Source of the DNA: a virus
IMG/VR virus record: IMGVR_UViG_3300007609_000008
Location: 61,422-125,421 of that record
DNA length: 64,000 nucleotides
Strand: one strand, 5' to 3'
Below, in pieces: positions 2,851 to 61,573 of this stretch. The translations under genes were made by a program, and so were the position numbers. The notes beneath the pieces were generated by a model, which was given only the letters and a program-made list of their open reading frames with translations, ran no database searches and was not told the DNA's origin. Positions within the stretch are counted from its first letter, which is position 1; each line of letters begins with the position of its first letter.

Positions 2851-3240
2851 ATGAGAGCATTACTTTTTATAGCAGCACTAGTACCATCAATCGCATTTGC
2901 TCAGATTGAGATAGTTTCAAAGCGACCTTACTATGTTATGGTTACTCAGCAAGAATGTGAGATACGAGAAGTCTATGTTGAGAATACTACAGGCGCATCA
3001 ATCGTAGGTGGTGTCATCGGAGCAGCTATCGGCAATGAGATTGGCGGCGGTTCGGGTAGAAAGATTGCTACTGTAGTCGGTGCAATTACTGGCGCTAATG
3101 TTGGACGCACTCGTGCCCAGAACAATGGCAGAATAGAACAACGACAGATTTGCCGTGATGTGCAAGTGCAAGAGCAGCGTGGTGAATATGTCACAATGCG
3201 ATACAACGGCAAGTTGTTTACACAATTATTTAATTTTTAG
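2851..3240 (+). CDS. secreted glycine-zipper 2TM protein (YcfJ/SlyB-like)
   Basis: Signal peptide ending AFA; GSIVGGVIGAAIGNEIGGGSGRKIATVVGAITGANVG zipper. Confidence 0.8.
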   Translation: MRALLFIAALVPSIAFAQIEIVSKRPYYVMVTQQECEIREVYVENTTGASIVGGVIGAAIGNEIGGGSGRKIATVVGAITGANVGRTRAQNNGRIEQRQICRDVQVQEQRGEYVTMRYNGKLFTQLFNF

Positions 3241-7053: not shown

Positions 7054-8872
7054 ATCTCGTATTTTGGCCATTCTGATAGAATCTAAACGAGCTATCGTTA
7101 TTCCTCACAGAGCTAGGAGATACTAGAATAGGAGTCGATTGATTGCCTGAAGTATTGTTAGTAGTATTATTAAATATATTCGTTACGTTATTCACTACTT
7201 GATTGAACGCTTCTGTCATATTTCCTACAGCGTCAGCAGTTGGAGTTACTTGAGGATCAATACCTTGAGCATCCAAAGTCTTGACACCAGAACCAGGAAT
7301 AGTTAGCATATCTGGTTCTGTGCTTTCGTTGTATCCATTTTCTAGTGCTGGTACTATAACGGCTGAACGCATGTGTGGATTTTGTTCTAAAAATACTTCT
7401 CTCTGTTGTGGATTCATGTTTTTAACAGCTTGTATCAAAGCAGGATTATTTTTTTGCTTTTCTTGAATTTCTGTTTTTGATAACTGTGTTGTTGGACTAG
7501 ACGCAACAACATCTGGTTCAGTATATCCTGCTCTTTCCATTTGTATTTTTTGTATTTCTTCACGATCAATTGTTCCATATTCTTCCATGTTTCGTCTTTC
7601 TACTGAACTCAATGGGGCAGTTGTAGTAGTTTCTTTTCCGCCCGCTGTTCTTCTAGTTCTTTCTGGTCCATCAGGGAGAGAATTCTCTCCTATAGGATTT
7701 TCAATCAATATGTTTGCTGCTGCTGCGAGTAATCCACCCACAACTATAAGTGGAGCAGCAACCGCCGCCGTTGTTCCAGTTGCTCCGGCTGCTACAGCAG
7801 TTCCAACCAGTGATGCACCAGTTACCAATGCTCTGGCAGCTCTACGAAATAAACCTGGCTTTGGCTTTTTATTATTAGGTCTTCTATTATTTCCGCCATT
7901 TCTATTTGAGTTTACATTATTTAAATCCATATCCATATCAGGCATAAAACCGTTCATACCACCACTCGAATTGAAAGACTCCATCTCCTTCAATTGCGCT
8001 AGAATCTGCTCTAGTAATTCTACCTGTTGATTGGCTAATGATTCTCTGTCAGTGCCAGATACAAAAGTCTCACCTCCTTCAGCATTTTGTTGAGATATAG
8101 TAGCTTTAGAAGTATTAGTAGCTTTAGAAGTATTAGTAGATGGGTTCTTTTCAATTTTTTCAATTACAGTATTTTCTGATTTTGTGTTCTCTGACAAGCC
8201 TGTCATTTGTGCGACTTCTGATAACGCTGCCATTTGAGATGCTCTTAGATTTTCATCCTCTAGATCTCTTCTTTCTTTTTTTATTATACTGTTAGCGGTG
8301 GGCTTCAATCCAAACATTTTTTCCAAGGTAAACGCTTGTTTCAATGAATCTTTGACGCCAAGTCCTTCGTCTGTTTTCATAAATTTACGAAAAACACTTC
8401 CGGTTATACTTCCTCTTCCTGCATCTTTTGCTAGAGTTTTCTGTGCCTTATCTAGACCTAAATTTTTAACAAGAGCATCGCCCTGATCTCCTGCAGAGAG
8501 TTTTATTTTTTCAATTTGTTTTACTAAATCTTTAATCGCTCTAACATTTGACTTACCTGTTTTTTCCTGAGCTTCTGCCATTTTTTTGATGAGAAGGCTC
8601 AATTCTTTTTTTGTATCATCGTCTGAATCTTCTAATATACTTTGTACTGCTTCTGTGTTATCTCCTAAATTTTTTGCCATAATAGAAGATGCAGATGAAA
8701 TTTTGTTTTTTGCGGACAGAGAAGATTTACCAGGATTGATGGCAGTTCTAATAGTTTCAACAAGTGCCGTTTTACCATCTTTAGTAAAGCGATTATTATT
8801 CTCAGTATCTTGCACATTAGCACCAGAAAATCCTTCGTCTAATATGTTTTTGCCTGATATTTTATATGACAT
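7052..8872 (-). CDS. putative baseplate hub / tape measure protein (gp29-like)
   Basis: 606 aa, helical low-complexity, Ala/Gly-rich hydrophobic stretch, NNTTNN-rich C-terminus; directly after gp26/gp51-like genes. Confidence 0.55.
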   Translation of the reverse strand: MSYKISGKNILDEGFSGANVQDTENNNRFTKDGKTALVETIRTAINPGKSSLSAKNKISSASSIMAKNLGDNTEAVQSILEDSDDDTKKELSLLIKKMAEAQEKTGKSNVRAIKDLVKQIEKIKLSAGDQGDALVKNLGLDKAQKTLAKDAGRGSITGSVFRKFMKTDEGLGVKDSLKQAFTLEKMFGLKPTANSIIKKERRDLEDENLRASQMAALSEVAQMTGLSENTKSENTVIEKIEKNPSTNTSKATNTSKATISQQNAEGGETFVSGTDRESLANQQVELLEQILAQLKEMESFNSSGGMNGFMPDMDMDLNNVNSNRNGGNNRRPNNKKPKPGLFRRAARALVTGASLVGTAVAAGATGTTAAVAAPLIVVGGLLAAAANILIENPIGENSLPDGPERTRRTAGGKETTTTAPLSSVERRNMEEYGTIDREEIQKIQMERAGYTEPDVVASSPTTQLSKTEIQEKQKNNPALIQAVKNMNPQQREVFLEQNPHMRSAVIVPALENGYNESTEPDMLTIPGSGVKTLDAQGIDPQVTPTADAVGNMTEAFNQVVNNVTNIFNNTTNNTSGNQSTPILVSPSSVRNNDSSFRFYQNGQNTR

Positions 8873-9030
8873 TACTGTTTACTCTGTTGTTTATCTGCTT
8901 TCTTTTTTAGATGTGTTATTAGCATACCAACATAAACTTCTCTTTCCCAAGGCATCATATTTTCCAATTCAGTTAAGCTATAATGATGCTCTTGCATTAA
9001 CAAAAAATTCGTTTTGTAATAGTTTTCCAT
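8872..9030 (-). CDS. gp51: gp51-like baseplate hub assembly segment (52 aa), not in ORF track
   Basis: MENYYKTNFLLMQEHHYSLTELENMMPWEREVYVGML; TAATG overlap with the downstream gene; no SD. Confidence 0.85.
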   Translation of the reverse strand: MENYYKTNFLLMQEHHYSLTELENMMPWEREVYVGMLITHLKKKADKQQSKQ

Positions 9031-9047
9031 CGAATCTTGAGAAAGAG

Positions 9048-9752
9048 TTAGGCGAAAAAATGATCATATCCGTTGATCATTATTTTATTTCTAGTGTTAC
9101 ACTCTGAGCATTCATAATCTACTTCATGTATTAACGCCGGAATATTTTTAAAAAATTCTGATGCTTTGTTAATTACTTCAACTGGCAAATTGTCAATAAA
9201 TTCTATCATTTCCTCTGATGTTTCATCTGCAGGGTTTATAACTTCTTCGCCTTGGTAGATATAAGAAATAGAATTTAGCAATATTTCTATATCATCTAAT
9301 TCATTTTCTTTCATTTGAATTTCAGCAGAAGGATACTTCAGTACAATGCCCGTTGTCTCTGATAGTTCTATTTTTGTTTCGGTATTTTCTTGATCTCCTA
9401 CTACCTCAAACTCAGATACGTCCATCTCATAATTTATTTGATTGTTGCAGTTTCCACAGCTCAATACAAAAGACTGTTCGTTGCCAATAGATTTTGTTCT
9501 TAATTGCAAGAAAGTCCATTGCAATTGATACATTGCTAATTTTCTTGCATCTATCTCGCCAAAAGAACAATTTTCTACTACTTGGCAACAGGCAGAATAC
9601 ATATCTTCCATGACTTCTGATGCTGCTGCCAGTGTCAAAATTTTATTTTCTTTCACTAAGAAAGGTCTAAATTTAATTTTATCTTTTATGCCTGGTATTA
9701 CTAAATCAAATGTTGGCACATCAATTACGGGTAAAGCCATTATAATCTCCAA
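9048..9752 (-). CDS. gp26: baseplate hub assembly chaperone
   Basis: MALPVIDVPTF..IKFRPFLVKE.KIL, LRTKSIG, two CxxC pairs, C-terminal FFA; likely start 9740 (GGAG). Confidence 0.9.
   Translation of the reverse strand: MEIIMALPVIDVPTFDLVIPGIKDKIKFRPFLVKENKILTLAAASEVMEDMYSACCQVVENCSFGEIDARKLAMYQLQWTFLQLRTKSIGNEQSFVLSCGNCNNQINYEMDVSEFEVVGDQENTETKIELSETTGIVLKYPSAEIQMKENELDDIEILLNSISYIYQGEEVINPADETSEEMIEFIDNLPVEVINKASEFFKNIPALIHEVDYECSECNTRNKIMINGYDHFFA
9054..9060 (-). promoter_or_regulatory. putative -1 programmed ribosomal frameshift heptamer T_TTT_TTC
   Basis: CAT TTT TTC GCC TAA at the gp26 end; the -1 frame reads FFRLTLSQDS-MENYY into the gp51-like ORF without a stop. Confidence 0.65.
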
Positions 9753-60412: not shown

Positions 60413-61573
60413 ATGGGTGTAGAATCCAAAATCCGAGAGCTTATGGAAGGCGCTGCAAATCGCCCCAAAGATAAGCAACAAGGTGACGCTTCTAATCCTA
60501 CTCAAGGAGATTCAAACGCTAATCCCGAAATGCAAGACCTTAGTGGTACTGGCAACAAGGAAGGCGGATTGACTTCACCTGTAGGCAAAGCGGCTTCAGG
60601 CAAAGAATCTAAAGACACTACTCTTCCTAAGGGAGCTGGTGCTAAAGAGGCTCCTGCTAACTTCGAGAACGACAAGCCATCTGAGACTGACGTAATGAAA
60701 AAAGCATCAGCCGGTAACGTTGCTAAAGAAGACGTTGACGTAGATGACGAAGTTATTGCCGAAGACGAAGTAGTCGAAGAAGATGCAATCGTTGAAGACG
60801 AAGAAGTATCAGAAGAAGATGCGATCACTGAAGAAGAAGCACTAGAAGAAGCTGCTCTTTTCGAAGCTGATCTGTCTGCACTCTTTGCTGACGAAGAGCA
60901 TCTCACAGAAGAATTTAAAGTAAAAGCAGCCGAAGTATTTGAAGCTGTTGTTACATCACGAGTTAGTGCTGAAATTGCACAAATTGAAGAAGAGCTTACT
61001 GAGGCAGCAAACGTAGAGTTTGAGTCACAGTTGGAGCAAATGGTAGAAAACATTGATAAGTATCTTTCTTATGTTACAGAAAACTGGATGACTGAAAATC
61101 AAATCGCTGTCGAAAGCGGTATTCGTACAGAAGTAACTGAGTCATTTATCAAAGGTTTACAGCAAGTATTCTCAGAGCATTACATTGACGTTCCAGAAGA
61201 AAAGTATGATGTAATGACTGAAATGCAAAGTCAAATTGATGAGCTTACTGCAAAGCTAGACGAGCAAGTTGAGTCTAATATTGCAATTAAAGAAGAAGCC
61301 ATTATGCTGAAGAAGCAATCAGTGCTTGCTAAGATTTCAGAAGACCTTGCGTCTACTGAAGCAGAAAAGTTTGCCGCATTAGTCGAAGACATTACCTACA
61401 CAGGTATGGATTCATATGAGCAAAAACTTCAAGTCGTTAAAGAAAACTATTTTCCAGCCGAAAAGTCGTTGACTGAAGACAAACTTGAAGACACATTTGA
61501 AGCTACATCAGAAGTAACTAATACAGTTATGTCTAAGTATGCTCAAGCAATTTCAAAAACAGCTAAGTTCTAA
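60413..61573 (+). CDS. gp22: prohead scaffold protein
   Basis: Acidic; L.EEFK.KA..VFEA.V, DKYL.YV...W..EN..A.E.GIR.E..ESF..GL...F.EHY. Confidence 0.95.
   Translation: MGVESKIRELMEGAANRPKDKQQGDASNPTQGDSNANPEMQDLSGTGNKEGGLTSPVGKAASGKESKDTTLPKGAGAKEAPANFENDKPSETDVMKKASAGNVAKEDVDVDDEVIAEDEVVEEDAIVEDEEVSEEDAITEEEALEEAALFEADLSALFADEEHLTEEFKVKAAEVFEAVVTSRVSAEIAQIEEELTEAANVEFESQLEQMVENIDKYLSYVTENWMTENQIAVESGIRTEVTESFIKGLQQVFSEHYIDVPEEKYDVMTEMQSQIDELTAKLDEQVESNIAIKEEAIMLKKQSVLAKISEDLASTEAEKFAALVEDITYTGMDSYEQKLQVVKENYFPAEKSLTEDKLEDTFEATSEVTNTVMSKYAQAISKTAKF

Follow-up and report, generated by a model that had tools for sequence, protein, structure and literature searches.

A probable programmed −1 ribosomal frameshift in the single gp26/gp51-family gene of an uncultured marine T4-like phage

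The window analysed here comprises 64,000 nucleotides (nt) of an uncultured marine T4-like phage (IMG/VR record IMGVR_UViG_3300007609_000008, positions 61,422 to 125,421), with every gene of the stretch on the minus strand. It carries one gene of the family that includes the T4 baseplate-hub assembly proteins gp26 and gp51, and we propose, with a probability of roughly 0.85, that this gene yields both a short and a long protein through programmed −1 ribosomal frameshifting at its 3′ end (coordinates in Table 1). Most ribosomes would read ...CAU UUU UUC GCC and end at UAA to give a 230-residue form, the counterpart of T4 gp26. Some would slip one base back on U_UUU_UUC (9060–9054), where two tRNA-Phe would re-pair from UUU-UUC to UUU-UUU; the slipped ribosomes would take CGC (Arg) next and continue through 60 codons to UAA at 8874–8872. 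The resulting 289-residue form would be colinear with T4 gp51, its PF12322 domain followed by a linker of 11 residues and then by an extension of three helices. The two products would serve the assembly of hub and tape measure as chaperones that do not enter the virion, their ratio being set by the frequency of slippage, a logic like that of lambda gpG/gpGT. We infer the slip itself, its efficiency and the binding partners of each form.

The 230-residue protein matches PF12322 (T4_baseplate) over the full length of the profile (E 1.9e-45, profile positions 2–219 of 219) and also matches phrog_150 (E 8.3e-47); its open reading frame (ORF) also includes an in-frame TTG at 9752, but the GGAG Shine–Dalgarno sequence at 9750–9747 precedes the ATG at 9740. 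The gene ends AAC GGA TAT GAT CAT TTT TTC GCC TAA, encoding NGYDHFFA*, and the −1 frame after its TGA reads TCA TTT TTT CGC CTA ACT ..., encoding *SFFRLTLSQDS-MENYYKTNF.... About four codons are shared by the 0 and −1 frames, and the heptamer lies inside this shared stretch. The initial annotation had described a gp26 end of CAT TTT TTC GCC TAA containing T_TTT_TTC, a −1 reading of FFRLTLSQDS running into a 52-residue ORF that lacks a Shine–Dalgarno sequence, and a fusion of about 290 residues. Direct reading bore out each of these: the heptamer stands where it was placed, the −1 frame is open to its TAA, and the predicted fusion has 229 + 60 = 289 residues. The ATG of the 52-residue ORF, 17 nt beyond the stop of the gp26-like gene, forms an anti-Shine–Dalgarno duplex of −0.7 kcal/mol, compared with a median of −4.2 kcal/mol over 55 gene starts of the window; a duplex of −4 kcal/mol or better is found at 58% of window gene starts versus 10% of random positions.

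In-frame X_XXY_YYZ sequences occur at 0.46% of the 19,066 codon positions in the window, and the chance of finding one in a three-position overlap is about 1.4%, falling to 0.17% for T_TTT_TTN. At a single locus the heptamer is weak evidence; taken with its conservation in relatives, it lies far beyond chance. The homologue set comprised 80 IMG/VR loci recovered by alignment query, four closer loci and annotated phage records. In total, 89 loci with 25–73% protein identity were compared, representing 86 unique junctions. An in-frame T_TTT_TTN lies in the last codons of the gene in 88 of them (65 TTTTTTC, 18 TTTTTTT and 5 TTTTTTA), the single exception reading TCG TTT TTT TAA, and the 0-frame stop follows 0–1 codon past the heptamer in 75/89. 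The initial annotation had suggested aligning the gp26 3′ ends of marine T4-like phages; in the homologues compared here, both the heptamer and the −1 relationship are retained in 88/89 loci, with constraint at synonymous sites.

The codon preceding Phe-Phe varies among those for D, N, S and H, with T at its third base in 85/86 unique junctions, whereas 52–75% of such codons end in T in the remainder of these genes (naive log10 P −16). For the first Phe, TTT is used in 86/86 where 73% would be expected (log10 P −11.8). Neither P value takes account of the ancestry that the loci share. The variety of the preceding residue nevertheless shows that the T has persisted while the amino acid changed repeatedly. 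In the five loci with TTT TTA, Phe is changed to Leu in the protein and the bases are unchanged. The cultured phages S-PM2, P-HM1, S-8S56, Cr30, YB07, ACP17, phiN3, RSP15, pf16, Paraglaciecola GD1, phiAS5 and RHph_I1_18 likewise carry T_TTT_TTN at this site. The one-gene arrangement with the heptamer extends across phages of cyanobacteria, Caulobacter, Sinorhizobium, Rhizobium, Stenotrophomonas, Acidovorax, Ralstonia, Pseudomonas and Paraglaciecola, and is also present in the Aeromonas phage phiAS5, a member of the Straboviridae.

Turning to the extension itself, the 52-residue ORF falls into phrog_634 ('baseplate hub assembly catalyst'; match at E 5.8e-23); it also matches positions 242–278 of the 282-position phrog_150 profile, of which the gp26-like protein spans positions 5–232. 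The gp51-type segment would be colinear with the PF12322 domain only through a −1 shift. T4 gp51 (249 residues) consists of PF12322 at residues 1–201 followed by a C-terminal segment of about 48 residues, spanning phrog_150 positions 13–280, and the make-up given for it in the initial annotation, a gp26-like domain plus a short C-terminal segment, was correct; T4 gp26 (208 residues) is the PF12322 domain alone. In alignment, the linker of T4 gp51 from ..DVF to FYQIN.. is 11 residues long, the same as in HFF-RLTLSQDSMEN-YYKTN of the predicted fusion. Precomputed Pfam assignments in a large protein collection place a further family, PF28602, on the extension, both in gp51 proteins of the T4 type and in relatives of the window protein. 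A review counts both T4 proteins among the chaperones of hub assembly (Leiman et al. 2010, PMC3004832, Table 2), and gp51 is reported to be required for tail assembly and not to be present in the virion (PMC3004832).

A single PF12322 gene is present in the window's own record (125 kb, ~76% complete) and in each of the complete genomes of S-PM2, Cr30, P-HM1, YB07, phiAS5, phiN3, pf16, D531 and RHph_I1_18, and T4 has two. A CxxC...CxxC pair resembling a zinc ribbon (residues ~95–100 and ~212–216 of the window protein) occurs in the gp26 proteins of the window and T4 and in YB07; the cyanophage proteins of S-PM2 and P-HM1 lack its cysteines. An internal duplication was also considered, since the last ~45 residues of gp26 were aligned onto the extension by MAFFT, and was rejected on an hhalign probability of 0.06%.

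The alternative that survives best, in our view quite unlikely, is that two independent genes are present. The ATG at 9030 would then start translation of the 52-residue ORF, possibly through re-initiation, and the T run would reflect nothing but the codons of a conserved Phe-Phe. In its favour, start-like codons lie near the beginning of the segment in some relatives (ATG in 23/86, only GTG or TTG in 15/86), a free-standing 'gp51' is annotated in GenBank records, and the Phe-Phe pair is kept even in T4 gp26. Against it, 48/86 loci lack any ATG, GTG or TTG in the −1 frame ahead of extension codon 13, and the closest relatives are among those without a start: the position of the window's ATG encodes Leu (CTT/CTC) in loci L008, L009, L011 and L012. 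The window's ATG itself has no Shine–Dalgarno sequence, although this phage uses such sequences.

Conservation in the −1 frame, moreover, begins 5′ of any ATG, at the codon overlapping the heptamer. TTTTTTC is followed by G in 62/62 loci, so that the −1 codon is CGN, Arg, throughout, and the 0-frame residue at this overlap is G, E, V or A, covering all GNN classes. An invariant CGN/Arg beside a variable 0-frame residue shows that selection acts in the −1 frame at this codon and changes frame at the heptamer, which speaks against two independently started genes. From its first residues the −1 peptide is conserved in all 89 loci as approximately R-[IL]-x-L-S-H-x-x-L-x-N-Y-Y-x-T-N-F...P-W-E-R-E; on the 5′ side of the heptamer, a stop interrupts the −1 frame 0–25 codons away, at places that vary among the relatives. 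The Acidovorax phage ACP17, which retains GAT TTT TTC, has a gap of 153 nt after gp26 (locus L091, 2263–2415) that encodes the conserved −1 extension; this segment is unannotated in GenBank because it has no start codon, a further point against independent initiation. In several singleton metagenome proteins (P0004, P0012 and others) a single frame runs through the domain and the extension (e.g. ...GLSSFFRIALSH...); these were set aside as possible homopolymer errors, and a sibling protein, P0016, shows frame errors.

Phages that do possess separate genes 26 and 51 provide a control for the codon argument. Ten were sampled (T4, PG7, mobillu, Phi_KR1, LHE83, Kosakonia 305, Octan, E26, UP87 and one IMG/VR contig), drawn from GenBank across several Straboviridae lineages, IMG/VR having yielded only 6–7 close T4 relatives. 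T_TTT_TTN is present in 0/10 of these phages. Their gp26 retains Phe-Phe in seven, has Phe-Val or Phe-Leu in two and shows no such pair in one (UP87), with the codons GAA/GAG TTC TTT, TTC TTC, TTT GTT or TTC CTT, and in one case GAG TTT TTT. Because two-gene phages keep Phe pairs without T_TTT_TTN, the T run tracks the one-gene arrangement and not the amino acids, contrary to what is expected if it served merely to encode Phe-Phe. In a maximum-likelihood tree of 37 proteins, the frameshift-type, gp26-type and gp51-type sequences form one group each (supports 97/91, 94/92 and 100/99), and the arrangement therefore changed once in this sample; the tree is unrooted, and its three groups give no order of age for the arrangements. 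Taken together, comparative sequence evidence supports the earlier suggestion that one gene and a frameshift supply the equivalents of both gp26 and gp51.

A very unlikely explanation is transcriptional slippage, in which RNA polymerase adds one U within the T run, so that the fusion is read in a single frame from the edited mRNA. One added U would give an identical long protein; a run of 6–8 T is conserved, and the T preceding the Phe codons lengthens it. Efficient transcriptional slippage in bacteria, however, usually needs runs of about 8–9, and 65/89 loci have only six T followed by C. Selection on run length would also favour TTT over TTC at the last codon, where TTC dominates. That the extension is a decaying, unexpressed remnant of a fused gp51-like gene is extremely unlikely, as its frame is open for 55–73 codons in all 87 complete loci, its peptide shows strong conservation from cyanobacterial phages to those of alpha-, beta- and gamma-proteobacteria, and it matches the C-terminus of the essential T4 gp51.

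In addition to the shared ancestry disregarded by the P values above, several observations weigh against programmed ribosomal frameshifting. The in-frame ATG at 9030 is present in the window, and some independent initiation may occur there. Furthermore, no downstream stimulatory RNA element was found, either in the window or family-wide. In the window, the 40 nt downstream of the heptamer fold with −1.5 kcal/mol, and a 94-nt fold gives z = +0.48; across loci, minimum free energies of the 60 nt downstream have a mean z-score of −0.23. Folds of the 40 nt downstream in 83 relatives do not differ from those of control segments of the same loci (Kolmogorov–Smirnov p = 0.39), RNAalifold on 83 sequences returned 0 consensus pairs, and the region has no Rfam match. 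As for an upstream stimulator, AACGGAT does not resemble a Shine–Dalgarno sequence. A hairpin 5–10 nt past the heptamer is seen in some lineages only, namely S-PM2, P-HM1 and the L008 and L029 groups. In the ATG-less close relatives L008, L009 and L012, a hairpin of 7–8 bp (TTCTCAAG...CTTGAGAA) stands about 10 nt past the heptamer (in L008, 8 bp at 3190–3225); in the window (9000–9045), the pairing of this hairpin is lost where ATG GAA stands.

The Vibrio phage D531 is a further counter-example, and one that favours two independent genes. Its extension lies in the −1 frame, and its gp26 ends TCA CTT TTC AAG TAA, with no X_XXY_YYZ heptamer; D531 belongs to a group of 67 Vibrio records. Possibly, a weaker single-tRNA slip on T_TTC or the phage's own ATG codons may provide the extension here, and D531 may imply that the extension is usable when expressed by other means. 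Within D531 (locus L092, 3040–3290), only a 34-residue piece of the gp51-like segment is annotated.

Structural models were obtained of the gp26-like protein alone, using AlphaFold2 (predicted local distance difference test score, pLDDT, 91.8; predicted template-modelling score 0.85), and of a natural T4-type gp51 (P0079; pLDDT 93.5). In the latter, the extension forms three helices at residues 208–221, 226–230 and 234–249. Neither Foldseek with the gp26 model nor a sequence search gave a match in the PDB. The top rows of a VIA-align comparison, all covering residues 1–95 of the gp26 model, were 3fgx (Z 7.4), 2ob9 (Z 6.9) and 3klu (Z 6.8), with the next row at Z 5.2; these Z values of 6.8–7.4 fall in a range that the tool flags as common for unrelated folds and possibly due to chance. 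Entry 2ob9 is the HK97 tail assembly chaperone (TAC; 82 residues aligned, root-mean-square deviation 3.8) and 3klu is Bacillus subtilis YqbN (85 residues aligned, deviation 4.4). The N-terminal part of P0079 gave the same chaperone at Z 3.9 and 3fgx at Z 3.8.

A tail-assembly-chaperone fold is suggested by these comparisons for the N-terminal ~90 residues of the gp26 model. The gp26-like protein has no TAC match in Pfam or PHROG, and the remaining ~140 residues of its model, in contrast to residues 1–95, have no counterpart in the small HK97 and YqbN proteins. The analogy to tail assembly chaperones that had been drawn for this locus thus finds some support in the structure of the N-terminal ~90 residues, at Z scores that are not decisive. 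In the record of Acinetobacter phage Octan (MT409116), gp26 and gp51 are both named 'tape measure protein assembly chaperone'; because this record already names both genes so, and the review cited above places both among hub assembly chaperones (PMC3004832), the chaperone idea for the T4 pair is not new.

Immediately downstream of the extension lies a 606-residue ORF, which had been put forward as a tape-measure candidate. Its adjacency and size fit, at 606 residues being close to T4 gp29 (590 residues); it has no Pfam or PHROG match, and BLASTP comparisons with the Cr30 tape measure, T4 gp29 and the P-HM1 neighbour showed no similarity. It remains a candidate by position and size. A language-model protein atlas gave a weak lead to a T4_Tape_measure cluster (score 0.87), and in Cr30 and RHph_I1_18 a small gene separates this position from the annotated tape measure. 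The gp26-like stop is 176 nt upstream of the ATG of this ORF, and the extension stop overlaps that ATG as TAATG (8874–8870); among relatives, the next long ORF starts −11 to +6 nt from the −1 stop in 62/84. Translation of the 606-residue gene may be coupled to frameshifted ribosomes. Phage operons in general are often tightly packed as well. Upstream of the tail-tube-family gene that adjoins gp26 (Table 1) are genes which, from recognition and from synteny with S-PM2 and P-HM1, we take to encode a gp2-like DNA end protector (10971–10396) and, probably, a gp4-like head completion protein (11432–10986). The same gene order upstream of gp26 is found in phiN3 and RHph_I1_18.

Table 1. Features of the gp26/gp51 locus, in window coordinates
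Feature	Position	Strand	Remarks
213-residue tail-tube-family protein	10403–9762	−	phrog_45 E 3.5e-25; weak PF06841; adjoins gp26 upstream
GGAG Shine–Dalgarno sequence of gp26-like gene	9750–9747	−	anti-Shine–Dalgarno duplex −6.4 kcal/mol
gp26-like baseplate-hub assembly chaperone gene, short form	9740–9048	−	ATG 9740; TAA 9050–9048; 230 residues
−1 frame TGA stop	9066–9064	−	two codons 5′ of the re-read point; ends the −1 frame ahead of the heptamer
Putative slippery heptamer T_TTT_TTC (U_UUU_UUC)	9060–9054	−	X_XXY_YYZ register; proposed −1 tandem slippage of two tRNA-Phe
Predicted −1 extension, 60 codons (RLTLSQDS + 52-residue ORF; gp51 C-terminal segment)	9054–8875; TAA 8874–8872	−	
ATG of the 52-residue ORF	9030–9028	−	not conserved; without Shine–Dalgarno sequence
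606-residue ORF, tape-measure candidate by position	8872–7052	−	ATG overlaps extension stop (TAATG)

We found no report of a gp26/gp51 frameshift in the literature or in database records. Homologues of the window gp26 occur in 608 phage records. In twelve GenBank records of frameshift-type phages that were opened, the extension is given as a free 'gp51', as a hypothetical ORF or as a late-start truncation (e.g. phiAS5), or is omitted, and in 0/12 is a joined coding sequence across the slip annotated. If ribosomal frameshifting does operate here, this core-gene annotation would need correcting, the T4 superfamily, which holds the best-studied contractile-tail phages, would join the rule of a short and a frameshift-extended tail chaperone, and lambda G/GT would serve as a concrete role model for T4 gp26 and gp51. 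The slip site is easily testable in cultured phages, for example S-PM2, P-HM1, Cr30, pf16 and phiN3. Predicted tryptic peptides for the window are IMINGYDHFFR at the junction, LTLSQDSMENYYK in the extension (with no initiator Met) and, from the short form, IMINGYDHFFA; their S-PM2 counterparts are a junction peptide ending ...GLQSFFR and an extension that starts ISMFYNNLENYYR.

A broader and decidedly tentative scenario, which we think doubtful as it stands, is that the PF12322 proteins truly belong to the TAC superfamily in a much enlarged form, that the −1 frameshift is ancestral in the whole T4 superfamily, that duplication in T4 and its close relatives gave gene 26 (short) and gene 51 (long, fused), and that the 606-residue protein is translated via TAATG mostly by frameshifted ribosomes. 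Membership of the TAC superfamily with an ancestral frameshift would explain T4 as an apparent exception to a near-universal chaperone frameshift, and coupling at TAATG would tie tape-measure output to that of the long form.

Among known systems, the T4 pair itself is the closest in sequence. It shares with the window locus the PF12322 family, the C-terminal extension, the 11-residue linker and a pair of short and long forms, predicted in the case of the window. It differs in that T4 has two divergently transcribed paralogous genes without a slippery run (GAG TTC TTT), whereas the window has one gene from which a −1 slip would yield both forms. The contractile-tailed phages P2 and Mu possess frameshifted chaperone pairs, gpE/gpE+E′ and gp41/42, respectively. 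These have no detectable sequence relationship to the gene described here, and the T4-type hub is far more complex; they resemble the arrangement proposed here in the contractile tail, the −1 frameshift and nested chaperone forms beside the tape measure.

A −1 frameshift is reportedly conserved in phage tail assembly chaperone genes, with lambda gpG/gpGT as the model. The lambda pair differs from the present case in family, since the window protein belongs to PF12322 with no TAC Pfam match, in its heptamer (G_GGA_AAG versus U_UUU_UUC here), and in size, as the chaperone domain here is larger (230 residues, with the zinc-ribbon-like CxxC...CxxC pair) and its likeness to TAC is confined to the first ~90 residues. 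The shared N-terminus that a −1 frameshift near the short-form stop creates in lambda G/GT is indicated here by sequence comparison only. In both systems, an X_XXY_YYZ heptamer stands a few codons before the short-form stop, the long form is, or here would be, a C-terminal extension of the short one, the gene lies just upstream of one of tape-measure size, and a strong stimulatory structure is not required. The gp26/gp51-family gene of the window most likely adds one more case to the tail chaperone genes already known to be frameshifted in phages.

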